From a virus (Duplodnaviria > Caudoviricetes), in the IMG/VR virus record IMGVR_UViG_3300025084_000024, positions 1 through 59,032 of that record: a stretch of 59,032 nt of DNA. One strand, given 5' to 3'. The translations under genes and the position numbers were made by a program. Within the stretch, counting starts at the first letter, position 1; every line of letters begins with the position of its first letter. The notes under the pieces are model-generated. The model saw only the letters and a program-made list of their open reading frames with translations. It was not told the DNA's origin and searched no databases. This document shows, piece by piece, positions 2,982 through 57,482 of this stretch.

Positions 2982-5900
2982 ATGGCAGAAGTTAAAAATG
3001 CTTTTATAAAGTCTAAAATGAATCAAGACCTTGATGATAGATTAATACCATCAGGTGAATATCGGGAAGGCTTTAATATACAAGTAAGTAAATCTCAAGG
3101 TGAAGATGTAGGTGCTTTAGAAAACGTTTTAGGTAATCAAGATTTAATTGATTTTGAAGCTTTAACGACTACAGGCATACAAGTTATTGGGCAATTTACA
3201 AATCCATCAAAAAATACAATATACTTTTTTTTAACTAATTATACAGATTTAAATTACATAACAAATCCTACCTACGATCCTACTAAATTTAATTATATTT
3301 ACGAATATAATGTATTAAATGGGGATAGTGTAAGGTTAGCGGAAGGAGCATTTTTAAATTTTTCAACAACAAATCCTATTTATGGTGTTAATATGGTTGA
3401 AAATATATTATTTTTTACAGATAATAGAAACCAACCAAGAAGAATTGATATAACGCGAAGAAATGCAAGTGGCGGAGTATTTTATACAAATGAAGATTCT
3501 GTAAGCGTAGCCCAATATAATCCCTTTGATCCTATTTTAGTTTATAAAGATAGTACTACTCAAGGAGCTGCGGCTGCTCCAGAAACCACTATGTACGATG
3601 TTGTTAGTGAATTTCTACCTGACAATTCTACTGAAAACCCTTATTATAACGCAAGCTACGCTGGAGATCCTGATTATTTAGAAAATAAATTTGTAAGATT
3701 TAGTTATAGGTTTAGGTTTAATAGCGGAGAATATTCTTTACTTGCCCCATTTACACAAGCTTTATTTATACCTCAACAAGATGGATACTTTCTTGAAGGA
3801 GATGAGGAAAGTGCTTATCGAAGTACAATTGTAAAGTTTATGCAAAATAAAGTAAATAGGATATTATTACAAATTCCAATACCATCTGCCGACGGGGCTA
3901 CATTTGTAGAAAATTTTAATATTGATGAAATAGATGTAGTATTTAAAGAATCTGATGGTCAGGCTTTATATGTTGTAGACACTATTCCCGGATCAACAAT
4001 ATCAATGACAACTGGTAATTATGTAGAATATGATTACCAAGCAAAAAAACCATTTAAAACTTTACCAGATTCTACATTAATTAGAGTATATGACAAAGTT
4101 CCAGTAAAAGCTTTATCACAAGAAATAATAGGCAATAGAGTTGTGTATGGTAATTATCAAGATAAACATACACCTCCTAAGTCTTTGGTTTATGATGTGG
4201 GTATTTCAAGTAAATCTAATTTTAATGATGATGATGATCCTAATATAGGTAGAGTAGAAAATACAACAAGCATTGTAGAATACCCTAATCATAATTTAAA
4301 ACAAAATAGAAATTATCAAGTTGGTGTTGTATTATCAGATAGATATGGTAGAACATCAACAGTTATATTGTCTACTACAACAGAAGGACAAGATGTTAAT
4401 GCAGTATTATTTGGCGCTTCAACCGTGTATAATCCTTATAGATTAGGTTTATTAGGTGAAACTACTGTTTACGCTGCGTCTGTAAAAGATTGGCCGGGTG
4501 ATTCTTTAAAAATAAGATTTGATCAAGCAATTCAATCAACAAAAAGTATTGTAACTGGTGCTCCTGGATTATATAACGGTGATCCTTCTAGTGCTAACTA
4601 TAATCCTTTAGGGTGGTATTCTTATAAAATAGTTGTAAAGCAATTAGAACAAGAATATTATAATGTTTATTTAGGAGGAATACTAAATGGGTATCCTTCG
4701 GCTCCAGCTTCTCCTCCGGATCCTCAAAACAGTACTGCATTTATAACTTTAATAAATGACAATATAAACAAAGTGCCAAGAGATTTAAATGAAGTTGGCC
4801 CAGACCAAAAACAATATAGAAGCAGTGTGCAATTATTTGGTAGAGTAACACCGGATAGAAGCACTTCTCCAACTTATAATCAACAATTTTACCCGGGACA
4901 AATAGATAGTGTAACTACGCCTGCTGTTGAATCTATAACAATTTTACCTTCTTCGGATACTGTAAACACAATAGCTGAAGAAGAAAATATAGTCACAAGT
5001 GGCGCTACTATTGTTGATCTTTATCAAACAGATTCTAATCCATATATAGCCAGAATAACTCAAGGTAATGAGCAAAATCCAATTGGTTCTTTACCGGTAG
5101 CTTCAGGAAGTTATAATTTTTTATTAGGAGTTTATGAAACTGAACCTGTTACTTCAAGATTAGAAATATTTTGGGAAACATCTACAACTGGTTTAATATC
5201 AGATTTAAATGAAGCAATACGCACCGGTACAAACGAAACAGTAGGTTTAGTATACTTTGAATGGGATTTAGATGAAGCAACCGAAATAGGTACTTCAATT
5301 GCAGGTAGATTTGCACCAATTGACGAAGAAGGTAATAATCAACTTCCTAAAGAACCCCTAGAAGAAAGTGATTTGTCTATGAGCGTTACTGATATAGATG
5401 GAAATGATATTACCAAATTTTCTTTAAGAAAAATACCAAAAACTGCTCAATCAGTTTATGATCCGCTAGACAAGGATACATTTGATACATATGAAATTGA
5501 TACTACAGAAGAATTTTATTATGGACCTGATGCAGCTGTAAATCAAGTATTTTATTTTACTTTTACTGACGATACAACAGGAGAAAATGTTGCCGATGTA
5601 GTAGAAAGTTTATCTAATGTAGCTCCTACTATAACTAATGGAACCACAGTTTCTTTTGATGCAGATGATACAGGAGTAATATTTACTTATGAAGCAATTA
5701 ACGGAACAGTTGACACTACGCGGAATGCTTTAAATTTAACATGGAGCATGGAAGGAAACCCTCCTGAACTTACTTTAGATGCAAATACAGGCGAATTAAG
5801 TGTTAGCGATTCACTTGCAGGAAAAATTACATTAACAATAACTGTTCAAGATGCTGGGGGTTTAACTGATACTATAACAAGTGAATTAGTAGCGGGAGAA

Positions 5901-7304
5901 ATACCTGTTAATGAAGGATTTGGTTCAGGTAGCGCACTTATGTCAGGGGGAAGCGGATGGTCTGGAGCCCATTACTGGTCATCTGGAGATAATAACTCTA
6001 CAGCATCAACTCCATTGCCAGGCGAATCTACGGGTACGGTTGATATACGAACACCTTATTCGGGGCTTTCATTAACATCTACAAAAGAAAATAGCGGATT
6101 TGTAACGGCACCTGATTGTGATGGATATACTTTTTATAATGAAAATCATAAATCATTAGGAACTGACAATCCATCATCTGGTTTAAGTGGAGGCTTAACA
6201 CAAGGGACAGGTTTTATAGCTCTTGATGTTTTAGGAGAGCAATATGATTTTAGCGTTAATAATTCATTAACAACATATCCCTTTATTTTATATCCTACAT
6301 ATTTACAATATAGAAATCCAACTGGAGCAGGGTATCCAAATAATTGGGAAATAGCAAAAGATATAGAGGGCAAAGAAATTAAATTTGGAGGAACTCAAAA
6401 CAATTGGGATTCTATATCTGTTGATCCTTATGGTGCTATTCAGGCTACTGGTGTTATAACCAATGACGATTCCGCAAGAGACTATGATAATAGAGAAATA
6501 AATGAATTTCCTATAACTGATACTAATATTGATTCAGAAGATTGTATGCAGGCATCATTACAACCTCCTGTAACTGGGACATCAAATAGGTTTAGAGTAG
6601 CAGCAAGAAGAGTTTTTGTAATTGGCAAAAGCCAGCAGGAAGCATATACTAATGCGCCTGAGTACTATGGGGACTATAGATTGGTAGTACGCTACCCATG
6701 GGGACTTTCTGTTGCTGATGGGCCTAGTGGATATGGAGAAGATATTGTAGTAGGTTATGGAACAGACTCATGCCCAGTAGATGCCCAATATAAAAATGCA
6801 CAAATGAATTGGCGATCAGTATTAAGATATGGCGATTTATACTACCCACCTTATAGCCGCTCTACACCTAGGTCTTATAGCTATCAAGTTTCTACTTCAA
6901 CTGGAGCCGATGGTATAATTGCAACAGGCTTAGCTACTAGTAAAAATTTATTTGCTAGAGAATGGGCAATGAGATATGTAAGTAGATTTTATGAAGATGC
7001 TGAACTTACAATACCATGGGAATCTGGTTCATCAGGTTTTCAAGGTGCAGGATGGTATGGATTTAGATCTGTAGGGGCAAATTTTGATGTTAATGTTAAA
7101 TATGGAACAGATAATTCATTTCCTAAATTTGGAACAACATCTGCTACGGGTAGTCAAAGCATTGATTTTAGACAAACTGACCAAGACAGAAAATGGGCCG
7201 TGTATTTAGATAATAATGGTATAAAAGTTTTAACAGACGTTGAAAGCCAAACAACTGTTCAGCCTGGTGTTGCTCCAAACTCCCCTCAATTCCCTCCGGG
7301 TTAA
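2982..7304 (+). CDS. Tail nozzle/stabilisation protein, N-terminal part, with cadherin/Ig-like and variable C-terminal domains
   Basis: 1440 aa. N-terminal 'KMNQDLDDRLIPSGEYR' and 'FFTDNRNQPRRI' are typical of P22 gp10-like stabilisation proteins. Cadherin-like segment 'NVAPTIT...LDANTGEL...ITVQDAGGL'. Confidence 0.65.
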   Translation: MAEVKNAFIKSKMNQDLDDRLIPSGEYREGFNIQVSKSQGEDVGALENVLGNQDLIDFEALTTTGIQVIGQFTNPSKNTIYFFLTNYTDLNYITNPTYDPTKFNYIYEYNVLNGDSVRLAEGAFLNFSTTNPIYGVNMVENILFFTDNRNQPRRIDITRRNASGGVFYTNEDSVSVAQYNPFDPILVYKDSTTQGAAAAPETTMYDVVSEFLPDNSTENPYYNASYAGDPDYLENKFVRFSYRFRFNSGEYSLLAPFTQALFIPQQDGYFLEGDEESAYRSTIVKFMQNKVNRILLQIPIPSADGATFVENFNIDEIDVVFKESDGQALYVVDTIPGSTISMTTGNYVEYDYQAKKPFKTLPDSTLIRVYDKVPVKALSQEIIGNRVVYGNYQDKHTPPKSLVYDVGISSKSNFNDDDDPNIGRVENTTSIVEYPNHNLKQNRNYQVGVVLSDRYGRTSTVILSTTTEGQDVNAVLFGASTVYNPYRLGLLGETTVYAASVKDWPGDSLKIRFDQAIQSTKSIVTGAPGLYNGDPSSANYNPLGWYSYKIVVKQLEQEYYNVYLGGILNGYPSAPASPPDPQNSTAFITLINDNINKVPRDLNEVGPDQKQYRSSVQLFGRVTPDRSTSPTYNQQFYPGQIDSVTTPAVESITILPSSDTVNTIAEEENIVTSGATIVDLYQTDSNPYIARITQGNEQNPIGSLPVASGSYNFLLGVYETEPVTSRLEIFWETSTTGLISDLNEAIRTGTNETVGLVYFEWDLDEATEIGTSIAGRFAPIDEEGNNQLPKEPLEESDLSMSVTDIDGNDITKFSLRKIPKTAQSVYDPLDKDTFDTYEIDTTEEFYYGPDAAVNQVFYFTFTDDTTGENVADVVESLSNVAPTITNGTTVSFDADDTGVIFTYEAINGTVDTTRNALNLTWSMEGNPPELTLDANTGELSVSDSLAGKITLTITVQDAGGLTDTITSELVAGEIPVNEGFGSGSALMSGGSGWSGAHYWSSGDNNSTASTPLPGESTGTVDIRTPYSGLSLTSTKENSGFVTAPDCDGYTFYNENHKSLGTDNPSSGLSGGLTQGTGFIALDVLGEQYDFSVNNSLTTYPFILYPTYLQYRNPTGAGYPNNWEIAKDIEGKEIKFGGTQNNWDSISVDPYGAIQATGVITNDDSARDYDNREINEFPITDTNIDSEDCMQASLQPPVTGTSNRFRVAARRVFVIGKSQQEAYTNAPEYYGDYRLVVRYPWGLSVADGPSGYGEDIVVGYGTDSCPVDAQYKNAQMNWRSVLRYGDLYYPPYSRSTPRSYSYQVSTSTGADGIIATGLATSKNLFAREWAMRYVSRFYEDAELTIPWESGSSGFQGAGWYGFRSVGANFDVNVKYGTDNSFPKFGTTSATGSQSIDFRQTDQDRKWAVYLDNNGIKVLTDVESQTTVQPGVAPNSPQFPPG

Positions 7305-7341: not shown

Positions 7342-8817
7342 ATGCCAGCAATAATAGAAGTTAAATATTTTAATAGTTTTATCTTAAGAAAAACTCTAAA
7401 TAATAGCGATGAACCGGTATGGAATGGCTCCAGAGGTATTCCTCAAGCTATTGGCGGATTTGATCAAGGTAATGTATCTTCTAATTCTGCTCAAATTACA
7501 AAAAATTGGGTTATAGAAGAAGCGCGTATTAGAGGTGGTTATAATAATACTTCTGCCGGGTATGGGGCTAAAGCTTATTTAGTAGAAGACGAACCTAATT
7601 CTTCCTTAAGATTTAATTCATTAATATATTCAGGTATATTTAATTCAACAACAGGAACAAATAATACAAATGTTTTTTCTATTGGAGCAGATATAACTAG
7701 AAGTTTAGATCCTGCACAAGGGTCAATTCAAAAGTTATATGCAGAAGACACTAATTTAATAATATTTCAAGAAAATAAAGTTAGTAATGCTTTAATTGAC
7801 AAAGACGCTATATATACTGCAGAAGGAACAGGCTTAACTACAACGGGTAAAGTTGTTATTGGCCCTGTAAGAGCATACGGAGGTAATTTTGGAATAAGTA
7901 GAAATCCTGAAAGCTTTGCTGTTTATGGTTATAGAAAATATTTTACAGATAAAGATAGAAATGCTGTATTAAGATTATCAGCTGATGGAATAACGGAAAT
8001 TTCTAATTACGGTATGATTGATTTTTTTAGAGATCAATTCGCATCTTTAGATAGTTATCAAGTCGGGCCTGGTAAAGCTGTTGGTATGTGGGATATATAT
8101 ACAAAACAATATGTTGTATCATTGCAGCCTGCTAACTCTAATGATTATAAAACGCTTTCTTTTGATGAAACCATAAATGGATGGACTAGTTTTTATAATT
8201 ATAAACCAGCTGCAGGAACAAGTTTAAAAAATCAATTTTATACAATAGACAACGGAAATTCTACAGATAAAAATGCTGCTTTATATAGACATTATAGTCA
8301 AAATGTTAATAGAGCACAATTTTATGGAACTACTTATAATTCATCTATAAAATTTGTATTAAATCCTTCGGTTAGCATGTCTAAAGTATTTAAAACAATT
8401 AATTATGAAGGAAGCAATGGTTGGCAAGTAGATTCATATGCTTCAGATTTTACAGGTGTTAGCTCAGTCAACACAGGAGGCGAATTTACAGAATTTAGCA
8501 ATACTAATACACAAGATGAAACTTCTTTAATATACAGCTACAATCAAGGGGCATATGATAACTTTGGTAATCAATACCCATCAACATTAACGCCTCCTAT
8601 AAATAGAGCTGGCTTTGACAGAAAAGAAAATAAATATTTTGCAAATTTAATTAATAACTCAGGGCCTGCTCCAGGTGAAATTATTTTTGGCAATCAAATA
8701 AGTGGTATAAAAGGACACTTTGTGACTGTTTCTATGTCAACTGATACTGTAACTAATTTTGGAAAAGCAAAAGAGTTGTTTGCTGTATCATCAGAATATG
8801 TAGAGTCCAGTTACTAA
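7342..8817 (+). CDS. Tail nozzle/stabilisation protein, C-terminal part
   Basis: 491 aa. 'GSIQKL', 'GISRNPESFA', 'SFDETINGWTSF' and 'KVFKTINYEG' resemble the C-terminal half of gp10-like proteins. Confidence 0.65.
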   Translation: MPAIIEVKYFNSFILRKTLNNSDEPVWNGSRGIPQAIGGFDQGNVSSNSAQITKNWVIEEARIRGGYNNTSAGYGAKAYLVEDEPNSSLRFNSLIYSGIFNSTTGTNNTNVFSIGADITRSLDPAQGSIQKLYAEDTNLIIFQENKVSNALIDKDAIYTAEGTGLTTTGKVVIGPVRAYGGNFGISRNPESFAVYGYRKYFTDKDRNAVLRLSADGITEISNYGMIDFFRDQFASLDSYQVGPGKAVGMWDIYTKQYVVSLQPANSNDYKTLSFDETINGWTSFYNYKPAAGTSLKNQFYTIDNGNSTDKNAALYRHYSQNVNRAQFYGTTYNSSIKFVLNPSVSMSKVFKTINYEGSNGWQVDSYASDFTGVSSVNTGGEFTEFSNTNTQDETSLIYSYNQGAYDNFGNQYPSTLTPPINRAGFDRKENKYFANLINNSGPAPGEIIFGNQISGIKGHFVTVSMSTDTVTNFGKAKELFAVSSEYVESSY

Positions 8818-10049: not shown

Positions 10050-11462
10050 ATGGGTGCATACGAAAATCCGCAAACAGTCATAGTTGATACTTCTTCTGCT
10101 TGGACAAATATGTCTAAGTCGATTGCTAATACTACTGTAAAATTTTTAGAAAAACAAACAGAGGTACAAAATGAAAAGTTAAAAAAGCAGCAAAAAGAAG
10201 ATTTAGCGTACAGCCAAAGACTTGTAAAAAATTTAAATACTCAACAATCAAAATTATATGGTTTAGATATTGAAAAGCAAACTAATGATTTGTTTAATCA
10301 AACCATATCTGATAAGACTACATTAGAGTTAAATCTTGAAAAAGCTACTACTCCAGAAGAAAGAAGTATGTATGCTGCTCAATTAGGGGACTACAATAAT
10401 AGACTTAATCAAATATTAGATTTTGCTAAAAATAAAGATACGTTTAAAGAAAATTTTTTAGATAAAAATGACCCTACTTCAAGAAATGGAGAAGGGCAAT
10501 GGTCTATACAAGGTGTTGAAGATTATTCTGATTGGATTAATTATGGGCAAAACTACGCTGCTTCTACCACTAATAGTTTCTTAAGTTTTGATGAATTAGG
10601 TGAATTAAAAATAAATATAGCTAATCCTGAAAATCAAGAAGAATTTAAGTCTTGGGGCACAACTGATTTCTTTTCTAAACAACCTCCTATAACGCCTATG
10701 GTTTCTAAAGGTTTGAGTGAAAGACTTTTAGATAGAGGTATATTAAATTCTAAAACACCTGGTAAATTAGCAGATGAATATAACACAATGAAAAGAAATG
10801 TTATGGATGCGATGGTTATTTCAGATGTTATTGAACCTTACGCAGAAAGTATTTTAACAGATCCCGATGCTGCTCAATCAGTTTGGATTAATGTTTTAAA
10901 ACAACCTGGTTTACTTGAAATGGCTACTGAAGAAGAGGGCAGATTTCCTATAGAAGGAAGCCCTTTTTCAAAAGAAAGCGCTGAAAAATTTATTGAGGCA
11001 TTTAATAATTTTGCTAAAAGCAAACTACCTAAAAATCACCCCGTAGCTGTAAAAGCTGTAAAAGATAGAATAGAAACAGCAGAAGAAATTGTTGAAGAAA
11101 AATTTAATAATTATATAAAAGAATTAGATACTTCTTGGACTGATGTTACAGGAGAAACAGCATCATTTGATCCTAAAACAAATATGCTTACCGTAACAGT
11201 AGAAATGGAAAATGAAGATGGCGATATAATTACAGAACCAGAATTATATGATTTAAGCCAACCGGGTCAATTTACTAATTATATTAGGTTATTATTAGAT
11301 AAATCACCTGACTTGGGTAATGATATTAAAAGCAGGGAAATAAAAAGAAGTATATTAGAAAAAGCTAAAGTTAAAGAAAAAGAATACCTTGCTAAATCAA
11401 ATGGAGCTGATGATTACAAGGGGTTTGAAGATTATCTAACTGGTCAAATTAAAAAAGACTAA
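10050..11462 (+). CDS. Putative internal virion/ejection protein
   Basis: 470-aa helical protein between the pilot protein and the giant protein. Confidence 0.5.
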   Translation: MGAYENPQTVIVDTSSAWTNMSKSIANTTVKFLEKQTEVQNEKLKKQQKEDLAYSQRLVKNLNTQQSKLYGLDIEKQTNDLFNQTISDKTTLELNLEKATTPEERSMYAAQLGDYNNRLNQILDFAKNKDTFKENFLDKNDPTSRNGEGQWSIQGVEDYSDWINYGQNYAASTTNSFLSFDELGELKINIANPENQEEFKSWGTTDFFSKQPPITPMVSKGLSERLLDRGILNSKTPGKLADEYNTMKRNVMDAMVISDVIEPYAESILTDPDAAQSVWINVLKQPGLLEMATEEEGRFPIEGSPFSKESAEKFIEAFNNFAKSKLPKNHPVAVKAVKDRIETAEEIVEEKFNNYIKELDTSWTDVTGETASFDPKTNMLTVTVEMENEDGDIITEPELYDLSQPGQFTNYIRLLLDKSPDLGNDIKSREIKRSILEKAKVKEKEYLAKSNGADDYKGFEDYLTGQIKKD

Positions 11463-11465
11463 AAC

Positions 11466-11707
11466 ATGTTTAAAACATTAAATCATAATGGCAATAGTTT
11501 TGAATTTCCTGATAATGAAAAAGGAAAAAATGATTATGAAGCTTTTATTGCTAAATTTCCTGATGCTACAGAGGTAGCAATTACCCCCGATCCCGACGAA
11601 GAGGGAAAGGAAACCCCTTCACAGGAGACAGTGGATGCAACTGTGGAGGTAAGCGATACGGCATCCAACTTGGAAAATGGTTCTTCGGAATCACAAAAAA
11701 TAGATAA
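11466..11707 (+). CDS. Predicted 80-aa -1 frameshift product of the giant gene
   Basis: 48 shared N-terminal residues followed by GNPFTGDSGCNCGGKRYGIQLGKWFFGITKNR, with stop TAA at 11705-11707. Confidence 0.55.
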
Positions 11708-14700
11708 CAGCCCCGAAGCTATATTTAAAAGAAAAAAACAAAACGCATTAGATCAAGCAAAAGTTTATAGCCAGCCTATTGAGCTAGAAGAAGTTGTAGT
11801 AACTTTTGATCCTTCGGAAAGAACAACCGAAGATTTAATAGACGATATTACAAAAGTTGATGATAGAATAAAACTTATAGCGGGAGACGATATGCAAATA
11901 GATGCGTTGGATTCTCCTAAAAGAATAAAAGAATATGCAACTCTTGCGAACAGAAGAAAAGAAATAAATGATAATTTAAGAAGTAAACTTAAAGAAGAAG
12001 GCAGCGCAAAGTCTTTATTAAGATCATTAAAAAAAGGTGATAAAGCTTTAGGCGAATATTTGCTATCAGTGCCTTCTTTTATTTATGAAATAGGATCCTT
12101 AGTGAGTGATCCTGTTAATAGAGCTTTAGGATTACCTAAAACAGATTTAACAAAATTTGAAGAATCTATAGGAACTCGGTCTTTATTAGATTCTTTAATA
12201 GATGAACAAGAAAAGTTAGGTAAAATACAAGAAGAATATAAAGACTTAAATAATATAAAAGGAGGTATTGGGGAAAATTTTTCTAAAGGTAATATCAGTG
12301 AAGGCTTTTATTTGCTAGGAGAAACATTAGCAGAATCTGCACCTGTAAGCTTATCTTTAATGTTTGGAGGCGCTGCTGGTTTGTCGAGAACTGCTTTAAC
12401 ATTAGGAGGCGGTATTCCTTTAGCTGCCGGAGAAGTGAGAACTCAAAAAGAAGAATACCCTGATCAAGAAAAAGCAGAAATGCTTTTAAAATCAACTTTA
12501 ATTGGTTTATCAGAAGGATTTTTTGAAGGAGTATTTGGCAGCGGTGCTATAGGTAAAACATACAAAAATATTATTGCTAAAGAAGGCGTTGAACAAGGAA
12601 CTAAAACTTTTAAAGATGGAATTATTTCAATGTACGAAGGGGCCTTGCAAAAATTTGGTGTTCCTATTGCGGCTGTTTCTGGAGGATTAGAAGAAGTAGG
12701 AACTCAAATAACCCAAAATTTAGTTAATGGTAAGCCTTTTAATGAAGGCGTTACAGACGCGTTTTTAGCTGGTGTTGGCGGTGGAGGATTATATGGGGCG
12801 CCAGTTAATTTAGCTAAAGGAGTTGAATTAGGCCGTAATCTAATACAGGAAATAAAAGTAAATGCTGAAATAAAACCAACCGAGTATACAAATATCTCTT
12901 ATGCATTTGATCCTATAGAAAAAACTACTGAAACACAAATAAAATTATCTCAATTAAAAAATTCAGATAAGGTATTACAAAGAAGTGTAGATTCTGAAAT
13001 TAAAAAAGGAAATATTACACAAGAACAAGGTGATGCTATAAAATTAAACTTTAGAGAAACTCAAGGTGCTACAAATCAAATAAAGTCTTTAAAATTAAAT
13101 GAACAAGATCAGGCTACTACTGTTCAGTTAATGAAAGAAAAAAAGCAATTAAAAAATCAAATTGAGCAAGTAGGTGAGCCAAATTTAACTACTGAACAAT
13201 CCGATAGAATAAAGCAGATTGATGAAGACTTAAAAGGTATTAGCTCAAAAGCTGTAACTCAACAAGTTGAAAAAGTAAGAGAGGCAGCTAAAGATATTAC
13301 AGATTTAGATATTCAAGAGTTTGCTACTACAGCAGAAACAGAGGCTTTTTTAAGTGAGCAAGATCAAAATGTTAAAGCATCCGCTAACCAAGGGTTTATA
13401 ATTCAAAATAAAGATGGGAAGCAAACCATTGTAATAAATAGAGAAGTTGCAGATAAAGAAATAGCGGTTGCCGCTCCTGCTCATGAGTTTTTACATGCTA
13501 TTTTATATAAAACCGTTAAAGATTCTCCTAATACAGCTTTACAATTAGGTAACTCCTTAATGGAATATATTAGTAAGATTGATATAAATCAAGTTAAAGA
13601 TAGTAATTTTGCACAAAGACTTCAACAGTATCAAGATCAGCCCGCTGCAGTTCAAGCTGAAGAAGCTATTACTTTATTTTCTGATGCTATTTTAACAGGA
13701 GATATAAAATTTAAAGAAAATATATTTACTAAACTTCGAGATGTAATTTCTAAAATATTACAGGTTGGCGGAGTTAAAGCTAGATTTGATACAGGAAGAG
13801 ATGTATATAATTTTATTAGAGATTATAATAAAAATATACAAGAAGGTAAATTAACTAGCCAGCAAATAAAAACAGCTGAAGAAGGGGTTAAATTAGATAT
13901 TCAAGAACAAGCCGTTAAAAAAGCAGAAACAGTAGTTAGAGAATCAAGGTCTGAAGAGGCATCTAATAAAGTTCAAGAGCTATATGAACAAAAAGGTGTT
14001 AATGCAGCTGTAGAAATAATAGAGCAATTTAAACCTATAACTAATAAGATAGTAGAGCAACGTAAAAATGCTCCAGGCTTTGATAGACAATTACTTACTG
14101 ATGAAATTGAAACAGGTGCTGGTGGCATACTTGACTTAATACAAGCATATGATCCTGCATCTAACGTTCCTTTAGCGGCTTATATTAATAAATTTTTGCC
14201 CGTAAGAGCCATCACAGCATCTCGTAGAGTGTTAGATGAAGAGTTTGTAGGTGATATTACAGAAGCACCGCAGGTAGCTACTGAAGCTGCACCAGAAACA
14301 GAGGTTGAGGTTCCGCCCACTAAAACTAAAAAGCAAGTTAAAAAAGAAACACTTAGTGAAGAAAATCAACAAGCTCTTAAAGATGTTGTTACAGATTTAA
14401 AATTAACAGAAGATCAGCTTACTTTTAAAACATTACCTAATGCTGCTATAGAGGTATTTGCTAAGCAAATTGATATACCTGCTAAAAAGTTTGCTGGAAA
14501 GTCTAATTTTAGACAAGCAGAGCTTGATAAAGTAATAAACTTTATTGAAGAAAACATAGATATTATTAGACAAGCATTACCCGAAGCAGCTGTGTTAGAA
14601 GGCGCTTCTGTTAGCGAGGGTCTTATAGGCACCGCAACTGGTGTACCTAATAATTTACTAAAAGATTCTAATTTATATACACGTAAAGAAAGAACTACAA

Positions 14701-17700
14701 AAAGAGCGGGTATAGTTCCTTTTGAAAAAAATAAAGGTATTGATAATAGCTCAATCTTAAAAGCTATAGGTATTATTGAAGGCAAAAGAACTGCCGGGCC
14801 CAGAGATAAACAAGCTCAAACAGCTAAAGGATTAATTAATGTGCTCGCCAAGTTTGCTACAAATCAAGAAGTACGACAGCAAAAAGATTTAACTCCACAA
14901 CAAAAAACTGATATTGAAACTGGTAAAGGAAGTAGATTATTATTTAGCAGATCATTAAGCGAAGTTTTTGGACTATCCGCTAATGAAGCCTTTAGCTTTA
15001 GCAATATATCTGATATTAATTCTGGTAGAATTGAATTAAAGGATTTATCGTCTGCTATGATTAAAGATGTTGGTATTCAAGAATGGATAGATATTATAGA
15101 TCCTGTTATAAGTAGGCAATACAAAGTTGGTGATAAACAACTATTAGATAATAAAATTGGCTTTGAAGCACTTGAATTAACAGAAAAAGAATTTAATGAA
15201 AATAAAAATATATTATTAGAGCGTTCTACTATTGATGGTAAAAAAAGATATAATCAATTTTTAACTCGTGGTAGAAAAGATTATTATGAAAATATATTAT
15301 CTAGCGCTATAAATAAAGAAGTAAAATGGATTCCAAGAGAAGGTGTGGAAATTGATGGAACCATATATAAAACTCCTATAGTTCCTAAACAAACCCCTGA
15401 AGGATTTGTAAATAAAAAAGCATGGAATGCTTCTTTACCGGAACGAATAAAATTTGCAGAAAATCAACAGAAAGGATTTAAAAAAATAATACAAAAGCTT
15501 ACCAATACATATCAGAATTCTAATAAAAGCAAAAAAGATAAAGCAAAAGTTGGTATGGTATTAAATACTTTTAATTCTAATATTAATGGTTTAATTAGAA
15601 CAGCAGCCACCCCAGGATTAGAGTTTAGAGTAGAAAAATTAAATAAAGATTCTGATTATAGATACGAGCATACTCAACCTGCTTCGGAAACATTAAGACA
15701 ATTAGCAAAAATAATTATTGGAGATAAAAATGCTCAAACATATGAAGAAATAATGGAAAACTTTAGGGTTGCTATTATTCCAAAAATATATGATGATATT
15801 ATAAATAAAGTAAGATTTAATGGAAAATTATTAAGATCAACATCTCCTTTAGACGAAAATAAAAACTTACAAAAACCAGTTGAATCAACTAAACCAACTC
15901 GCTATGAAGCCGCGGCAAAAGCTATAGCAAATGCAGGATTAGCCCCATTAATATTAACCGATGCTATAGTACCCACAGATAAAGCTCAAGTAAAATTAAG
16001 CAAATCAAAATCTAAAGCTGCAGTAAAAAACAATTTAGAATTACCTAAATCTCAACGCTTACCTAAAGGCAGCACTAATGAACAGGTATTAGCTAAAATG
16101 CAAGAGCTTGATAATGAAGCTAATGAAGCTAGAATTAAATACAGCAAATCACAAAACTTAGATGAAGCATTCAATGATATTATAGAAGCTAAAACTGGCA
16201 TTGAAACATATAAAAGATTTTCGCCGGCTAAAGCAGCTGTAAGAGGAGCAAGTAAAGGTAAATTTAATTTCTTTATCCCACCTAGTGCTGAAGACTTTAC
16301 AGGGTTATTATATAAAACATTAGCTAAAGGTAAATTGGGGGATAGACAAATGCAATGGTATAAAGATAATTTATTAGATCCTTATGCTAGAGCAATGAAT
16401 GATATATCCGCTGCCCGTGTAGCTATGTTTGAAGATTATAAATCACTTAAAAGTGATTTAGAAATTATTCCTAAAGATCTTAAAAAGAAAAGTGTTGATG
16501 AATATACAAGAGAACAAGCTGTAAGAGTTTATATATGGAATGATCAAGGTGATAATGTACCTGGTTTATTTAAAACAGATCAAAAGGATTTAGTTAATTA
16601 TGTAAATAATGATACTGAGCTTAAGCTGTTTGCAGAGCAACTTATAGCTATTCAAAAAAACGATGAATATTCTGCTCCTAAAGAAGGATGGCTTGCGGGC
16701 AGTATTACAACAGATTTATTAGAAGGCGTTAATTCTATTAAAAGAAAAAAATATTTAGAGCAGTGGCAAAATAATGCAGATGAAATATTTTCTGATGTTA
16801 ATATGAACAAATTAGAGGCAGCATTTGGAAAGCCTTATAGAAAAGCTTTAGAAAATATTCTTACAAGAATGAAAACGGGTAGAAATAAACCGTTTACAAG
16901 CGATTCACTTGCAGGTAGAGTTACCGACTGGTTAAATAATTCTGTTGGAGCGATCATGTTTTTTAATACACGATCTTCTGTATTACAAACAATATCGTCA
17001 ATTAACTTTGTTAACTGGAGTGATAATAATATTTATCAAGCTGGTAAAGCTTTTGCTAATCAACCACAATATTGGAAAGACTTTAAATTTTTATTTAATT
17101 CTGACTTTTTAAAAGAAAGGCGCGGAGGTTTAAGATTTAATGTAAGTGAATCTGAAATAGCTGATGCAGCTAAAAAAGGTGGTGCAAGGGGTGTTATAAG
17201 TAAAATACTTCAGGCTGGATTCCTACCTACGCAAATGGCGGACAGTTTTGCAATTGCATCAGGTGGAGCTACATTTTATAGAAATAGAGTTAAATCTTAT
17301 ATTAAAGAAGGATTAACAGAAACTGAAGCACAAGAAAAAGCATTTTTAGATTTTAGAGAAATAGCTGAAGAATCACAGCAGTCATCAAGACCCGATAGAA
17401 TTAGTGCACAACAAGCAGGGCCATTAGGGCGCACCATATTAGCTTTTGCAAACACACCGGCGCAATATGCTAGATTAACTAAAAAAGCCGCTAGTGATCT
17501 TATAAATGGCCGTGGTGATGCTAAAACAAATATATCTAAGCTACTTTATTACGGTGTAGTGCAAAATTTAATATTTAACACTTTACAGCAAGCGGCATTT
17601 GCAATTGCATTTGGTGATGATGATGAAGATGAAAAGAAAAAAGAAGAAAAATACATAAGTGTAGCTAATGGAATGGCAGACGGTTTACTCAGAGGTATTG

Positions 17701-18158
17701 GTGTTGGCGGTGCCGTAATCTCTACATTAAAGAATACTTTAATTAAAATTATTAAAGAATCAGAAAAGAAACGGCCCGATTATGCTGAAACTGCTGTAAT
17801 ACAATTATTAGGTATATCTCCACCTATTCAATCAAAAGCTCAAAAAATAAGGAGTGCTTTAAAATCTTATGAGTGGAATAAAGACGAAATGAAAGAAAAA
17901 GGATTTAGCTTAGATAATCCCGCTTATTTAGCAGGAGCTAATGTTATATCTGCAGCAACAAATATACCTCTTGATAGAGTTGTAAAAAAAGTAAACAACG
18001 TTAGAGCAGCCACAAGAGATGATATATCTAAACCGGAAAGAATGATGTTATTAGCAGGCTGGTCGGATTGGCAATTAGGTATACAAAAAGAAAAGGAAGT
18101 TAAACCTAAAAAGAAAAAAAAGCGTAAGCTTAAAAGAGTAACAAAAGGACAAAGATAA
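11466..18158 (+). CDS. Giant multi-domain internal virion (ejection/polyvalent) protein with a zincin HExxH motif and a sigma-region-2-like domain
   Basis: 2230 aa. Gly-rich hydrophobic segment, HEFLH at aa ~673-677, sigma-2-like segment at aa ~846-923, basic C-terminus. Confidence 0.7.
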   Translation: MFKTLNHNGNSFEFPDNEKGKNDYEAFIAKFPDATEVAITPDPDEEGKETPSQETVDATVEVSDTASNLENGSSESQKIDNSPEAIFKRKKQNALDQAKVYSQPIELEEVVVTFDPSERTTEDLIDDITKVDDRIKLIAGDDMQIDALDSPKRIKEYATLANRRKEINDNLRSKLKEEGSAKSLLRSLKKGDKALGEYLLSVPSFIYEIGSLVSDPVNRALGLPKTDLTKFEESIGTRSLLDSLIDEQEKLGKIQEEYKDLNNIKGGIGENFSKGNISEGFYLLGETLAESAPVSLSLMFGGAAGLSRTALTLGGGIPLAAGEVRTQKEEYPDQEKAEMLLKSTLIGLSEGFFEGVFGSGAIGKTYKNIIAKEGVEQGTKTFKDGIISMYEGALQKFGVPIAAVSGGLEEVGTQITQNLVNGKPFNEGVTDAFLAGVGGGGLYGAPVNLAKGVELGRNLIQEIKVNAEIKPTEYTNISYAFDPIEKTTETQIKLSQLKNSDKVLQRSVDSEIKKGNITQEQGDAIKLNFRETQGATNQIKSLKLNEQDQATTVQLMKEKKQLKNQIEQVGEPNLTTEQSDRIKQIDEDLKGISSKAVTQQVEKVREAAKDITDLDIQEFATTAETEAFLSEQDQNVKASANQGFIIQNKDGKQTIVINREVADKEIAVAAPAHEFLHAILYKTVKDSPNTALQLGNSLMEYISKIDINQVKDSNFAQRLQQYQDQPAAVQAEEAITLFSDAILTGDIKFKENIFTKLRDVISKILQVGGVKARFDTGRDVYNFIRDYNKNIQEGKLTSQQIKTAEEGVKLDIQEQAVKKAETVVRESRSEEASNKVQELYEQKGVNAAVEIIEQFKPITNKIVEQRKNAPGFDRQLLTDEIETGAGGILDLIQAYDPASNVPLAAYINKFLPVRAITASRRVLDEEFVGDITEAPQVATEAAPETEVEVPPTKTKKQVKKETLSEENQQALKDVVTDLKLTEDQLTFKTLPNAAIEVFAKQIDIPAKKFAGKSNFRQAELDKVINFIEENIDIIRQALPEAAVLEGASVSEGLIGTATGVPNNLLKDSNLYTRKERTTKRAGIVPFEKNKGIDNSSILKAIGIIEGKRTAGPRDKQAQTAKGLINVLAKFATNQEVRQQKDLTPQQKTDIETGKGSRLLFSRSLSEVFGLSANEAFSFSNISDINSGRIELKDLSSAMIKDVGIQEWIDIIDPVISRQYKVGDKQLLDNKIGFEALELTEKEFNENKNILLERSTIDGKKRYNQFLTRGRKDYYENILSSAINKEVKWIPREGVEIDGTIYKTPIVPKQTPEGFVNKKAWNASLPERIKFAENQQKGFKKIIQKLTNTYQNSNKSKKDKAKVGMVLNTFNSNINGLIRTAATPGLEFRVEKLNKDSDYRYEHTQPASETLRQLAKIIIGDKNAQTYEEIMENFRVAIIPKIYDDIINKVRFNGKLLRSTSPLDENKNLQKPVESTKPTRYEAAAKAIANAGLAPLILTDAIVPTDKAQVKLSKSKSKAAVKNNLELPKSQRLPKGSTNEQVLAKMQELDNEANEARIKYSKSQNLDEAFNDIIEAKTGIETYKRFSPAKAAVRGASKGKFNFFIPPSAEDFTGLLYKTLAKGKLGDRQMQWYKDNLLDPYARAMNDISAARVAMFEDYKSLKSDLEIIPKDLKKKSVDEYTREQAVRVYIWNDQGDNVPGLFKTDQKDLVNYVNNDTELKLFAEQLIAIQKNDEYSAPKEGWLAGSITTDLLEGVNSIKRKKYLEQWQNNADEIFSDVNMNKLEAAFGKPYRKALENILTRMKTGRNKPFTSDSLAGRVTDWLNNSVGAIMFFNTRSSVLQTISSINFVNWSDNNIYQAGKAFANQPQYWKDFKFLFNSDFLKERRGGLRFNVSESEIADAAKKGGARGVISKILQAGFLPTQMADSFAIASGGATFYRNRVKSYIKEGLTETEAQEKAFLDFREIAEESQQSSRPDRISAQQAGPLGRTILAFANTPAQYARLTKKAASDLINGRGDAKTNISKLLYYGVVQNLIFNTLQQAAFAIAFGDDDEDEKKKEEKYISVANGMADGLLRGIGVGGAVISTLKNTLIKIIKESEKKRPDYAETAVIQLLGISPPIQSKAQKIRSALKSYEWNKDEMKEKGFSLDNPAYLAGANVISAATNIPLDRVVKKVNNVRAATRDDISKPERMMLLAGWSDWQLGIQKEKEVKPKKKKKRKLKRVTKGQR
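11603..11667 (+). promoter_or_regulatory. Programmed -1 ribosomal frameshift signal (slippery heptamer + H-type pseudoknot)
   Basis: In-frame G GGA AAG (11603-11609), 6-nt spacer, stem 1 11616-11624/11641-11649 (9 bp), stem 2 11632-11638/11661-11667 (7 bp). Confidence 0.75.
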
Positions 18159-38666: not shown

Positions 38667-41600
38667 ATGGCAATAATATATACTTACCCGGTAGTTGCAC
38701 CCGCACTATCAGATCTGGTTATAGGTACAGATTTAGGCGGTAAAAACCCAACTAAAAATTTTACAATACAAAGTATTGCAGATTTGGTTGGAGGGGTAAA
38801 GCAAATAGTTGCCGGAACAGATATATCAGTAGACCCAACAGATGGAACAGGCATTGTAACAGTAAATTCAACGCTTGATCCTGGGGTTACTTCTTTAATA
38901 GCTGGGGACAATATTAATTTATCACCTGCTGATGGGACAGGGGATGTTACTATTGGTGTAAGCAATGTTGTGTTATCTGTATCTACCGGTGATGCTGATA
39001 CAATATTAATAGGCGGCACAAACGTAAGTCCTACAGTTTCTGCTAATGTTACATCAACAATAGCTTCTGGAGGAGCTAATTTGGTAGCGGCAGGCACAAT
39101 ATATGATTTTGTAGATACAAATTATATTCCTTATGCGGAAACCTCAACTTCACAAATACAGTTTGTTGATAATAACTCTGCTTTAGGAACATCAGATACT
39201 GTGGTACCTACTCAATTAGCTGTTAAAACTTATGTAGATAATGCTGTTACAGGCCAGTTAATATATCAAGGTGGTTATAATGCCGCAACTAATACTCCAG
39301 ATCTTACAACTTCTCCTAATAGTATTTTACAAGGGTGGACATATACAGTTACGACTGCGGGAACATTTTTTACCGAAACGGTTGAGGTTGGCGATTTATT
39401 AATAGCCGAAAGTGATAATCCAACTTCGTTAAGCAATTGGACAACAGTACAAAATAATATTGGTATTGCGACCGATACGATACAAGGTATTGCTAATTTT
39501 CCAATTTCAGGTGGTTTATCAATAAACGCAGGAGCGGTTTCATTGCCTGATTCAGGTGTAACTGCAGGGTCTTATACACTTTCTGATATAACGGTAGATG
39601 CTAAAGGAAGGATAACTTCAGCGTCAAGTGGAACAGTAAATATAGGAGTATCTGACTTATCTTCTGCTTCAGGTACCTTTATAACAATTGCTAATTTATC
39701 TTCAGCAACAGGGGCTATTGATTTAGGTACTGTTGATTTATCAGCTACTGGAACCCCTAGCAGTACTACTTTTTTAAGAGGGGATAATACTTGGGCTACT
39801 GTTATTTCTGAAAATGACTATGTTGATGGCATACAATTTGATACAGGAACTGGTGTACTAACTTTAGAAAGAACTGGAGCTTTAGCGGATTTAACTCAAG
39901 ATTTAGATGGTAGATATGCATTAGCATCTGATGTACCATCCAATATAGTACAAACAGTTGACACAACTAGTGGTGCGTTCATAGATCTTACACCGGCATC
40001 ACCAACATCTGGTGCTGTAACGGTTACTGCGGCACTTTCTGCAACCGGCACTCCTAGTGCATCAACATTTTTAAGGGGGGATAATGCTTGGAGTACTGCA
40101 CTTACAAGTGTGGGCATAACAAGCACGCTTTCAACTATAGCAATAAGTAATTCCCCATTAACAGCTAATGGGAATATAAACATAGATTTATCAACATCAG
40201 GAGTTAGCCCTGGTTCTTACACAAATTCTAATATAACCGTAGATCAATATGGTAGGATAACGGTTGCTAATAGTGGGGCCGCAGGAGGGGTTTCTGATTT
40301 TACAAATTCTAATGGTACTTTTATTAGTTATACTACAGAAAATGCAGCGGCTACAGGAAGTGTTACTACGGGACAAGTAGATTTATCAGCCCTTGGCACT
40401 CCTTCTGCTACTACATTCTTAAGAGGAGACAATGCTTGGGCAGAACAATCTGATATTGTAGCGGGAGCATCGACTCTTGTGGAAATAGAGGTTAAAAATT
40501 TAGAGGGTGCAGCTTTAACTCAAGGAACCCCTGTATATTTACTAGGCACGGTTGGTGCTTCAATTATAGTTGAAGTAGGCAAGGCAGACGCAAGTAATGC
40601 TAATAAAATGCCTAGCGTTGGTATATTAAAGCAAGACTTAGCAATTAATGGACAGGGGTATGCAATTGTATCAGGTACTTTAAAAAATGTGTCTACCAGT
40701 CCTATAGATTCAGTAACACCATCTACAGGTGATACGCTATATGTTAAATCTGGAGGCGGATTAACAACTACAAAGCCAACTGGTTCAACAAACTTTATAC
40801 AAAATATTGGACAAATAGGTAGGGTTAACAGCGTTGGTGGATCTATTTTAGCATCTTGTATTATGAGATCTAATGATATACCTAATTTACCTACAGGTAA
40901 AATATGGGTAGGTAATAATAATACCACAGTTTCTGATGTAGTTTATTTAGATGAAACTAATTTAAGATTAGGGTTAAATACAATAACACCATCACAAAGT
41001 CTGCATGTAGATGGTAATACTAGAATAACAGGGGCAATATACGATTCGAATAATGTACCAGGAACCTCTGGAGAAATATTAAGTTCTACTGCAACCGGAA
41101 CAGCTTGGGTTTCTGCTGGGGGTAGTGGTACAGTAACATCAGTAGCAACAAGCTCCCCTATTACTGGGGGTGTTATTACATCTAGTGGAACTATAGGTAT
41201 TACACAATCTAGTACTGCTACCGATGGATACTTATCGTCTGCCGATTGGAATACATTTAATAATAAAACATCAAATGCTGGTACAGTCACATCGGTGGCT
41301 ATTACAGAAACAGGTACAGCATTAACTATAACAGGCTCACCAATAACAAGTAGTGGCGTAATTGACATAGCTGGAGCAGGAACATCCTCACAGGTTATAC
41401 TAGGCGATCTTACTTTAGGCACTTACACTACAGGAACAGTTACTAGTGTAGGCATATCCGCTGGATCTGGAATAGGTGTAACAGGAAGTCCTATAACAAC
41501 GAGTGGAATTATAACTGTAACTAATACAGATACAGGTTCATCTCAAAATATATTTAAAACAATAGCTGTTTCCGGTCAATCAGATATTGTAGCTGGCAGC

Positions 41601-42926
41601 AATAGCGATACTTTAACTGTTGCAGCAGGGTCAGGAATAACTGTTACTACAAATTCTGGAACAAATGAATTAACAATAGCTACTAGTGGTGGCGGAGGAA
41701 CCGTAACAAGTGTGGGACTTTCGATGCCTTCTGCATTTACTGTTGCTAATTCACCTATTACTTCAAGCGGAACTCTTACAGTAACCGGAAGCGGATCAAT
41801 TTCTCAATATATAAGAGGAGATGGTACTTTAGCAACATATGACGAAGGTACAGTAACATCAATAGGAACAACGGGACCAATTACCGGTGGTACAATAACA
41901 AATACAGGTACTATTGGTATTACACAGTCAAGTACCTCTGCCGATGGTTATTTATCTTCAACTGACTGGAACACCTTCAATAATAAAGGCAGTGGCACGG
42001 TTACAAGCGTAGGAGCAATTACAGGTACAACGGGTACGGATTTTAATATACAAAATTCTCCTATAACTAGCTCCGGTAATCTAGAATTTAATTTGCCAGT
42101 TGCAAGTGCAACAAATACAGGTAAATTGTCATCAACAGATTGGAATACATTTAATAATAAAGGCAGTGGTACATTAACGGGAAGCGGTTCATCCACTCAA
42201 GTTGCTTTTTGGTCCTCATCATCAGGATTAACTGGAAGTAATAGTTTATACTGGGATTCAGTCAATAATAGACTAGGAATAGGAACATCTAGCCCACAAG
42301 AAGCGTTGGATGTCAGTGGGTTTATACAATCAGGCTCTATTGTAGTTGATCAAACCAGCTTATTTATAAATTCTAATCAGAGTCCTAATGTAGGAATGGG
42401 TACAAATTCCCCTAGCGAAAGATTAGACGTGTCAGGAGTAGTGAAATCAACAGGTCTTAAGGTTAATAACAATATTATTTATGTTGCTAACTCTGGCACA
42501 AATGTAGGAATAGGAACATCTAGCCCACAAGAAGCATTGGACGTTAGTGGGTTTATACAGTCAGATTCTATTATAGTTGACCAAGGCAGTTTATTTATAA
42601 ATTCCAATCAAAGCCCCAATGTAGGAATGGGAACGACTAGTCCTAGTGAAAGATTAGACGTATCAGGTGTGGTAAAATCAACAGGGCTTAAAGTTAACGG
42701 CGATGTTCGAGTAGATGCTCGTTATTATGATGCGGGTAATTCATCTGGAACAAGTGGCCAGCTATTAAGCTCAACAGGAAGTGCTACTGATTGGATTGAT
42801 GTACCTACCGCTCCTAGTACAGACAATCAAAACGGCGGGTCAGCATTACAATATTGGTCAGGAACACAAGCCCAATACGATTCTATATCAACTCCCGATG
42901 CTAATACAATTTATTTTATTACATAA
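38667..42926 (+). CDS. Long tail fibre protein
   Basis: 1419 aa. GTVTSV, ITVDxxGRIT, FLRGDNxW, LSSxDWNTFNNK and GIGTSSP repeats. Confidence 0.85.
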   Translation: MAIIYTYPVVAPALSDLVIGTDLGGKNPTKNFTIQSIADLVGGVKQIVAGTDISVDPTDGTGIVTVNSTLDPGVTSLIAGDNINLSPADGTGDVTIGVSNVVLSVSTGDADTILIGGTNVSPTVSANVTSTIASGGANLVAAGTIYDFVDTNYIPYAETSTSQIQFVDNNSALGTSDTVVPTQLAVKTYVDNAVTGQLIYQGGYNAATNTPDLTTSPNSILQGWTYTVTTAGTFFTETVEVGDLLIAESDNPTSLSNWTTVQNNIGIATDTIQGIANFPISGGLSINAGAVSLPDSGVTAGSYTLSDITVDAKGRITSASSGTVNIGVSDLSSASGTFITIANLSSATGAIDLGTVDLSATGTPSSTTFLRGDNTWATVISENDYVDGIQFDTGTGVLTLERTGALADLTQDLDGRYALASDVPSNIVQTVDTTSGAFIDLTPASPTSGAVTVTAALSATGTPSASTFLRGDNAWSTALTSVGITSTLSTIAISNSPLTANGNINIDLSTSGVSPGSYTNSNITVDQYGRITVANSGAAGGVSDFTNSNGTFISYTTENAAATGSVTTGQVDLSALGTPSATTFLRGDNAWAEQSDIVAGASTLVEIEVKNLEGAALTQGTPVYLLGTVGASIIVEVGKADASNANKMPSVGILKQDLAINGQGYAIVSGTLKNVSTSPIDSVTPSTGDTLYVKSGGGLTTTKPTGSTNFIQNIGQIGRVNSVGGSILASCIMRSNDIPNLPTGKIWVGNNNTTVSDVVYLDETNLRLGLNTITPSQSLHVDGNTRITGAIYDSNNVPGTSGEILSSTATGTAWVSAGGSGTVTSVATSSPITGGVITSSGTIGITQSSTATDGYLSSADWNTFNNKTSNAGTVTSVAITETGTALTITGSPITSSGVIDIAGAGTSSQVILGDLTLGTYTTGTVTSVGISAGSGIGVTGSPITTSGIITVTNTDTGSSQNIFKTIAVSGQSDIVAGSNSDTLTVAAGSGITVTTNSGTNELTIATSGGGGTVTSVGLSMPSAFTVANSPITSSGTLTVTGSGSISQYIRGDGTLATYDEGTVTSIGTTGPITGGTITNTGTIGITQSSTSADGYLSSTDWNTFNNKGSGTVTSVGAITGTTGTDFNIQNSPITSSGNLEFNLPVASATNTGKLSSTDWNTFNNKGSGTLTGSGSSTQVAFWSSSSGLTGSNSLYWDSVNNRLGIGTSSPQEALDVSGFIQSGSIVVDQTSLFINSNQSPNVGMGTNSPSERLDVSGVVKSTGLKVNNNIIYVANSGTNVGIGTSSPQEALDVSGFIQSDSIIVDQGSLFINSNQSPNVGMGTTSPSERLDVSGVVKSTGLKVNGDVRVDARYYDAGNSSGTSGQLLSSTGSATDWIDVPTAPSTDNQNGGSALQYWSGTQAQYDSISTPDANTIYFIT
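42274..42697 (+). repeat. Tandem 231-bp (77-codon) duplication in the fibre gene
   Basis: Units start at 42274 and 42505 (TAGGAATAGGAACATCTAGCCCACAAGAAGC...). Differences are mostly synonymous. Confidence 0.85.
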
Positions 42927-51348: not shown

Positions 51349-51559
51349 AGAATTAATTAAAGTAGCAAAAGAAGATATTGTAGATTCTGATGATGACATA
51401 TCTGCTGATAGATTAAAAAACGCTGCTGCAACTAAAAAATTAGCAATATTTGACGCTTTTGAAATATTAAACAGAATAGATCAAGAAGAAAAATTATTGC
51501 AAGAAATTCCAGAATCTAAAAAACAATTTGGTGGATTTGCGGAAAAAAGATCTAAATAA
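51293..51559 (+). CDS. Putative terminase small subunit
   Basis: Helical protein coupled (TAATG) to the large terminase. Start set at MDIKKT. Confidence 0.6.
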   Translation: MDIKKTKLNIIQAGQRAVEELIKVAKEDIVDSDDDISADRLKNAAATKKLAIFDAFEILNRIDQEEKLLQEIPESKKQFGGFAEKRSK

Positions 51560-53778: not shown

Positions 53779-53782
53779 ATAG

Positions 53783-56197: not shown

Positions 56198-56228
56198 TTT
56201 TTATTAATTAATTTTATATTATTATATT

Positions 56229-57461: not shown

Positions 57462-57482
57462 CTAATTTAAAAAAATTAAAAA

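Follow-up and report, generated by a model that had tools for sequence, protein, structure and literature searches.

The heptamer G GGA AAG is the slip site of the lambda gene pair G/GT, where ribosomes that shift shortly before the end of G continue into T, no pseudoknot being known to be required. In Escherichia coli, copA carries a 5'-proximal -1 shift on a heptamer of the ..A AAG type with a downstream pseudoknot, by which the N-terminal domain is released as a small protein, CopA(Z), whose translation stops very soon after entry into the -1 frame. Alphavirus TF, cardiovirus 2B* and arterivirus nsp2TF are likewise products of a -1 shift, in these cases short proteins with a functional new-frame C-terminus encoded in overlap with the main open reading frame (ORF). 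The general principle of such transframe proteins is set out in PMC5009743, which also presents E. coli dnaX (tau/gamma), where a -1 shift on ..A AAG with a 3' RNA structure leads to a shorter product without the C-terminal domains. Here we analyze a candidate -1 frameshift cassette located at positions 11466-11707 of a viral DNA stretch of 59,032 nucleotides (nt), IMG/VR record IMGVR_UViG_3300025084_000024, the whole of which is hereafter called the window. The cassette occupies the very start of a giant gene (11466-18158, + strand, from the ORF list and its translation) that encodes a protein of 2230 amino acids (aa) in the zero frame, of no recognized family. Comparison with homologous genes indicates that this is very probably a genuine -1 programmed ribosomal frameshift (PRF) cassette, making a protein of about 80 aa alongside the giant protein.

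The original prediction had described G GGA AAG exactly in X XXY YYZ phase, a 6-nt spacer, a 9-base-pair (bp) stem whose loop pairs with a downstream segment as a pseudoknot, and a -1 frame open for 32 codons, the whole within a GC-rich island; each of these elements is found in the window as described. Codons 46-48 read GAG GGA AAG and place the slippery heptamer at 11603-11609 (+ strand, as all the elements of the cassette), at the end of an N-terminal module of 48 codons (11466-11609, from the translation) which would be common to the giant protein and to the predicted transframe protein. The spacer spans 11610-11615. Stem 1 of the pseudoknot associates a 5' arm at 11616-11624 with a 3' arm at 11641-11649, the latter overlapping the CxC codons of the -1 frame, through 9 bp including one G-U, and the equivalent stem covaries in homologues. 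Stem 2, of 7 bp, associates a 5' arm located within the stem 1 loop (11632-11638) with a 3' arm at 11661-11667, and both arms undergo compensatory changes in homologues. The resulting loops of 7, 2 and 11 nt are compatible with a feasible H-type geometry. The -1-frame coding stretch (11609-11707), which belongs to a conserved peptide family with a coding signature, consists of 32 codons followed by the stop TAA at 11705-11707, giving a predicted transframe product of 48 + 32 = 80 aa, and its peptide combines a segment containing Cys with a YGIxLGKWFFG hairpin and a tail of basic character. The guanine-cytosine (GC) content reaches 52% at 11550-11649, against roughly 25-35% around.

According to the proposed mechanism, a ribosome with GGA in its P site and AAG in its A site (codons 47-48) would meet the leading edge of the H-type pseudoknot 6 nt downstream, which would resist unwinding, whereupon the tRNA-Gly and tRNA-Lys of some ribosomes would re-pair on GGG and AAA. 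The slippage would be either of the classical tandem type or an A-site -1 slippage, in both cases stimulated by the downstream pseudoknot. Shifted ribosomes would then read the 32 codons of the -1 frame and terminate at 11705-11707, releasing a product of about 80 aa in which the N-terminal module shared with the giant protein precedes a basic segment containing Cys and a tail with an aromatic beta-hairpin, while unshifted ribosomes would make the 2230-aa virion protein. The actual occurrence of shifting is what we infer from the comparison of homologues presented below.

Two IMG/VR scans (8 and 73 loci) provided, once duplicates were dropped, 76 sources including the window, three of which are cut at their 5' end, leaving 73 assessable giant-gene starts. 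The G GGA AAG heptamer is in phase in 24 of these 73 genes, the window counted, and every copy of GGGAAAG found within the first 400 nt stands in X XXY YYZ phase (24/24); the first 900 nt hold just one further copy, in locus L083, which is out of phase. Conservation in homologues of the heptamer, of covarying stems and of an open -1 frame with GKWFFG had been put forward by the original prediction as the checks to be made, and all three came out in its favor: the same place is occupied, always in phase, by the heptamer or by a weaker site of the NNA AAG or T TTT kind, pairing is retained in both stems via compensatory changes, and the -1 frame encodes a conserved G[KR]WFFG peptide with a coding signature. 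Among 89 unique cassettes, the slip site is G GGA AAG in 42, another NNA AAG in 39 (G GAA AAG, A GTA AAG and A GCA AAG for the most part, and A AAA AAG once) and T TTT in six, two further G GGA AAG sites having fallen outside the stretch covered by the script. The element shared by cassette slip sites is A AAG, the classic minimal -1 site in bacteria (Z_ZZN / A_AAG) according to PMC5009743 and PMC6815119, the former also describing G_GGA_AAG as highly shift-prone in E. coli.

The choice of this heptamer is opposed to the codon usage of the genes that carry it. In the bodies of 74 unique giant genes (beyond nt 600), AAG accounts for 17% of Lys codons, GGA for 24% of Gly codons and G for 9% of third positions, and the maintenance of the heptamer against such a usage therefore points to nucleotide-level selection on the slip site. 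In the same bodies, G GGA AAG encodes none of the 1252 Gly-Lys pairs, and none of the 21 copies of GGGAAAG is in phase, 16 being in phase 1 and five in phase 0. This avoidance of the in-phase heptamer suggests a selection against accidental shifting.

The structure located downstream of the slip site is conserved as well. Using a pseudoknot finder of our own, in which stem 1 begins 4-9 nt after the site and stems are perfect, of at least 5 bp, with G-U allowed, an H-type pseudoknot was found in 39 of 40 unique cassettes when the best-scoring of at most two slip-site candidates was used, with a spacer of 5-7 nt, a stem 1 of 5-11 bp, a stem 2 of 5-9 bp and a loop 3 of 6-16 nt. Thirty-two of the 40 cassettes outscore at least 95 of 100 dinucleotide shuffles, in a count which took the last NNA AAG candidate and so the wrong site for L005, L015, L022 and L038. 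With the first candidate, 35 of 40 cassettes reach a pseudoknot score of at least 31, as against 19 of the 546 in-frame NNA AAG sites found elsewhere in these genes.

The stem sequences diverge widely between cassette classes, and in a global MAFFT alignment of the 40 cassettes (A2) the stems are out of register across classes, so that pairs were counted on three in-register subgroups (A3, A4 and A5, with 17, 9 and 8 of the 40 sequences, some sequences belonging to two subgroups); for the classes to which the window belongs, the comparison was limited to the per-cassette pseudoknot table. In A3 (17 sequences), 78.9% of the stem 1 cells are paired, against 25-47% when partners are slid, and seven pairs are changed on both sides; the nine core pairs hold in nearly every sequence, and as many as five pair types occur at a single pair. 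Both stems could be followed in A4 (9 sequences; 90.3% paired, 28-41% slid), with three double changes per helix, and in A5 (8 sequences; 90.6% paired, 24-41% slid), with four double changes in stem 1 and two in stem 2. The covariation score was reached by none of 500 shuffles in each of A3, A4 and A5, for subgroups and structures that come from our own finder, for related sequences and for stems lying across conserved codons of the -1 frame. Compensatory pairs of several independent types are nevertheless hard to account for without a conserved pseudoknot.

The -1 frame itself has the properties of a conserved protein. Its peptides follow a common layout, namely a Cys-rich segment (CxC, CCGxGCxC or HxxGHxCxC), a hairpin motif of the form [RK]YG[IF]x[IFL]G[RKS][WY]F[FI]G, then three to six mostly basic residues and the stop. 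A regular expression for this motif matches 43 of the 73 assessable giant-gene starts, in the -1 frame every time. A profile hidden Markov model (HMM) built from 41 unique -1 peptides and run on 48,005 six-frame ORFs of 1.43 Mb matches 50 of the 76 sources at E <= 5.3e-9, with one match per source, at the giant-gene start, the next best match having an E-value of 0.82; seven of these 50 sources are outside the training set. The -1 frame is open for 29-52 codons across 96 unique cassettes, 71 of 96 tails contain three or four cysteines, and the median N-terminal part of 46 aa and tail of 33 aa would give a product of about 78 aa. A RING-like Pfam match of the -1 peptides was rejected, its 16 bits being under the cut-off of 27.

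The same nucleotides are also translated in the 0 frame, where they form an acidic and poorly conserved linker of the giant protein, the mean charge being +4.6 as -1-frame tail and -5.7 as 0-frame linker. The nucleotide entropy by -1-frame codon position, calculated on a 15-codon block of 40 unique sequences, is 0.82, 0.66 and 1.30; variation is highest at the third position of the -1-frame codons, which corresponds to the second of the 0-frame codons, and selection at the protein level therefore acts on the -1 frame. On these 15 codons and 40 sequences, amino-acid identity between pairs of sequences amounts to 0.54 for the -1 frame vs 0.35 for the 0 frame. It could be considered that nothing is recoded and that the giant protein merely has a conserved peptide or linker motif here (e.g. 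a protease or targeting site ..SEDGSLEL..), the -1 ORF and the stems being by-products of this motif or of a recently recombined mobile module. A loose 0-frame pattern, [ST]..SE[DN]GS[LS]E[L], does recur, the N-terminal region is clearly mosaic, and the cassette nucleotides of the window and of L011 are nearly identical when the proteins are only 56% identical overall. However, variation concentrated at the 0-frame second position is always non-synonymous in that frame, and it is the -1 frame that behaves as the better conserved protein, open over its 29-52 codons in all 96 unique cassettes; moreover, the in-phase heptamer is kept despite the opposed codon usage and avoided elsewhere, and the stems covary. 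The absence of any recoding is thus, in our opinion, extremely unlikely.

The mosaic nature of the N-terminal region deserves a separate description. The first 30-90 aa of the giant proteins are mosaic, and the modules located upstream of the cassette are 32-93 aa long and belong to several unrelated types. At least five such types are joined to the same cassette, for example MEELExIVQRMIDAGE.., MFExxGxxYSLEE.. and MPxYxxNxKxYxxP.. (among L011-L083 and L084-L168). The association of unrelated N-modules with one cassette implies that modules are often swapped.

How ribosomes would enter the -1 frame was considered from the sequences preceding the conserved peptide. No ATG, GTG or TTG occurs before the Cys-rich part in 87 of 89 unique -1 ORFs, and ATG occurs in none. 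In L022, L023, L024 and L045, a -1-frame TGA or TAA lies immediately 5' of GGG AAA, so that in these four loci the -1 frame must be entered no earlier than the heptamer but ahead of the conserved peptide, which begins a few codons further on. A search of 1.84 billion representative proteins with a profile of 46 tails (A6) retrieved, at E <= 1e-3, 28 small proteins of 54-131 aa (P0002-P0029) in which an N-module of one of these types continues in frame into the tail. Their architecture is exactly that predicted for the transframe product, which is suggestive. P0006 resembles a 1-nt insertion variant of the L008/L046-type cassette, and P0011 a 47-nt deletion variant of the L084/L121-type cassette. 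The closest DNA relatives of P0011 (94%) and of P0019 (72%) differ from them by 3n-1 nt and, like all the nearest DNA relatives of these small proteins, require the shift. Scans seeded with P0011, P0003, P0019 and P0013 returned 37 viral loci, of which 19 carry the motif, and 34 metagenome loci, of which 29 do; the overlapping, shift-requiring arrangement is present in all 48 motif-bearing loci (19/19 viral and 29/29 metagenome).

These data bear on whether the -1 ORF could be expressed without slippage at the heptamer, by internal non-canonical initiation, by transcriptional slippage or through genomic indel variants fusing the two frames. In favor of such routes, database proteins such as P0006 and P0011 resemble indel or deletion variants that join the tail in frame, and close to half of the slip sites consist of a tetramer only. 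Nevertheless, we regard this whole set of routes as very unlikely. Start codons are nearly absent, four frames open exactly at GGG AAA, a shift is required in each of the 48 motif-bearing loci fetched later, and a conserved pseudoknot 5-7 nt downstream is the signature of ribosomal -1 shifting. As for transcriptional slippage, the longest homopolymer runs at the sites, of 3-4 nt, are too short for it, slippage being described on runs of nine in PMC5009743.

Several observations weigh against a frameshift cassette and have to be set against this evidence. Within the window, GGGAAAG is not enriched (three copies vs 5.4 expected, on a single sequence) and the nested fold of 11603-11672 does not differ significantly from shuffled sequences (z = -1.03, 26 of 200 being as good); the stem 1 hairpin taken alone does stand out (-14.2 kcal/mol, z = -3.2, one of 200 shuffles as good). 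The window sequence alone is not statistically convincing, and the case rests on the comparison of homologues. In this comparison, the cassette is absent from 23 of the 73 assessable homologues, L075 keeps the heptamer (gene offset 140) with a -1 frame closed after six codons, and the strict finder detects no pseudoknot in L049. The shuffle and slide controls are optimistic because of the finder-chosen subgroups, the kinship of the sequences and the overlap of the stems with conserved -1-frame codons. Concerning the slip site, about half of the cassettes have tetramer-only sites with a P-site codon unable to re-pair (A GTA AAG, A GCA AAG), and since this codon cannot re-pair, the efficiency of shifting at such sites may be low. 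Natural fusion, indel variants or frame-corrected gene calls may account for the 28 in-frame small proteins, which are not counted as independent evidence. Lastly, the tail has no accepted Pfam match and no usable match in the ESM Atlas, and the AlphaFold2 (AF2) model of a 34-aa query (window 11603-11704), with a beta-hairpin formed by residues 17-23 and 26-32, is of low confidence (mean predicted local distance difference test score, pLDDT, of 59.8).

Regarding function, the strong selection on the tail argues that the small protein is itself functional. As each shift taking place 46 codons into a 2230-codon gene aborts an expensive product, the shift might be real but mainly regulatory, attenuating or tuning the translation of the giant gene or feeding mRNA decay, with a transframe peptide devoid of function. 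We consider this exceedingly improbable, because the tail shows purifying selection, keeps a length of 29-52 aa and retains the hairpin motif and the basic C-terminus across very divergent phages. Limiting the copy number of the giant protein by shifting, as the original prediction proposed, is possible but would be secondary to the production of a functional small protein; the N-terminal part may, as it also suggested, act in targeting. Our best guess is that the latter would be a co-factor present in a fixed ratio to the giant protein and acting in assembly, in packaging or in the virion via the shared N-module. Given that unrelated N-modules share one cassette, the N-module probably docks both products to a phage-specific partner and the tail would represent a generic activity; the basic, Cys/His-rich and aromatic composition of the tail suggests that it adds metal, nucleic-acid or membrane binding. 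Since the N-module is common to both products, the small protein would also inform on the binding of the giant protein, and offers a handle on its binding partners. In a broader perspective, which we put forward tentatively and would place slightly short of an even chance, a large and globally distributed group of uncultured marine crAss-like phages would use obligatory recoding, and the swappable N-module joined to a new basic domain with a Cys/His knuckle and an aromatic beta-hairpin, coded only in the overlapping frame and hence out of reach of every gene caller, would form a class of small proteins not seen before, acting as an essential partner of the giant virion protein (e.g. in packaging, ejection, DNA or membrane binding).

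The 59-kb virus record, from an uncultured marine phage, is estimated to be about 93% complete, and its gene content indicates a crAss-like phage with a virion module of crAss type, including muzzle, TerL, portal and capsid-like genes. The muzzle gene is located at 7342-8817 (PF25729 crAss_MUZ_C, Pfam E = 1.2e-12), the genes for TerL, the portal and a capsid-like structural protein at 51559-58922 (PHROGs), and the replication genes are on the minus strand (PHROGs). Downstream of the muzzle gene, the giant gene (11466-18158) closes the virion module as its last large gene, and this position after the muzzle gene is what suggests a virion or cargo role for the 2230-aa protein, its naming as an ejection protein in the original prediction being a guess from gene order. 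Sequence searches with this protein gave no match in Pfam, PHROG or PDB, and neither blastn of 11000-13000 nor tblastn of the 2230-aa protein matched GenBank phages; therefore, no cultured relative could be used for comparison. By contrast, the C-terminal 640 aa match at least 6895 metagenomic proteins at E <= 1e-3 (8000 scored), all of them unnamed or "hypothetical". PF22028 is present, according to precomputed Pfam annotations, in some relatives of the giant protein (P0039, P0042, P0070, P0071, P0088, P0098 and P0102) and absent from the window protein.

The organization of the giant gene also varies among homologues. In L122, the cassette-bearing zero-frame ORF (5782-6045) is just 88 aa long, and the large gene may be split there. 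For the cassettes of L024 (3767-3883) and L045 (3939-4088), the in-frame walk from the conserved C-terminal part stops about 5.8 kb downstream of the cassette, so that the giant gene is interrupted or split in these two loci. Elsewhere in the window, a full-length GroEL-like chaperonin is encoded at 45453-47006 (+ strand; phrog_5725, E = 1.3e-132). Two other very large genes are present, one at 2982-7304 (+ strand, 1440 aa), whose sole match is a "virion structural protein" PHROG, and one at 38667-42926 (+ strand, 1419 aa), with almost no matches. No tRNA genes were found in the 59-kb window.

In the literature on frameshifting, crAss-like phages and transframe proteins, no description of this cassette or of the small protein was found, and Rfam, searched with 11400-11900, gave no corresponding family but a chance snoRNA match with E = 0.28. 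If the shift is true, the cassette would be among the best comparatively supported frameshift sites of bacterial viruses beyond the tail-chaperone and capsid cases. Its variants would provide dozens of natural slip-site and pseudoknot "mutants", including a heptamer-to-tetramer series and stem variants, as a data set on what bacterial ribosomes require for shifting. It would also reveal, in abundant marine phages, a hidden conserved domain coded only in an overlapping frame and thus missed by annotation and protein databases, and it would mean that pipelines seeking frameshifts only in tail chaperones overlook real recoding.

Compared with the systems described at the outset, the locus displays the combination of features that marks a -1 frameshift, with a slip site in phase, a structure 5-7 nt downstream undergoing compensatory changes and an open, constrained -1 frame without start. 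The likeness with lambda G/GT lies in a gene of a phage structural module giving two products with a common N-terminus, presumably in a fixed ratio. The differences are that the shift takes place here 46 codons into a 2230-codon gene, that the product is shortened to about 80 aa and that an H-type pseudoknot is conserved; the gene follows a crAss-type muzzle gene and has no chaperone match in Pfam or PHROG, so that it is distinct from a lambda-type tail assembly chaperone pair, in which the shift extends a small chaperone gene lying between those for the tail tube and the tape measure. With copA, the contrast is between a copper ATPase and a phage virion gene, and the -1 frame adds here a conserved basic domain with Cys and a hairpin. 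In systems of the dnaX/copA type, the -1 frame is closed within a codon or two, whereas it runs for 32 codons in the window and 29-52 in homologues, with conservation at the protein level. The transframe proteins of alphaviruses, cardioviruses and arteriviruses differ by their occurrence in eukaryotic RNA viruses, by other stimulators and by unrelated protein sequences. The original prediction had seen an inverted logic in this arrangement; the shift does shorten the product here, but this is not unprecedented, dnaX doing likewise according to PMC5009743; from dnaX the present locus differs by its conserved new-frame domain of 29-52 codons, its 5'-proximal site and its pseudoknot. Judged by its sequence features, the cassette would work like the known bacterial -1 PRF sites, and what appears new is its gene context, its 5'-proximal position and the conserved domain that it would add from the new frame.

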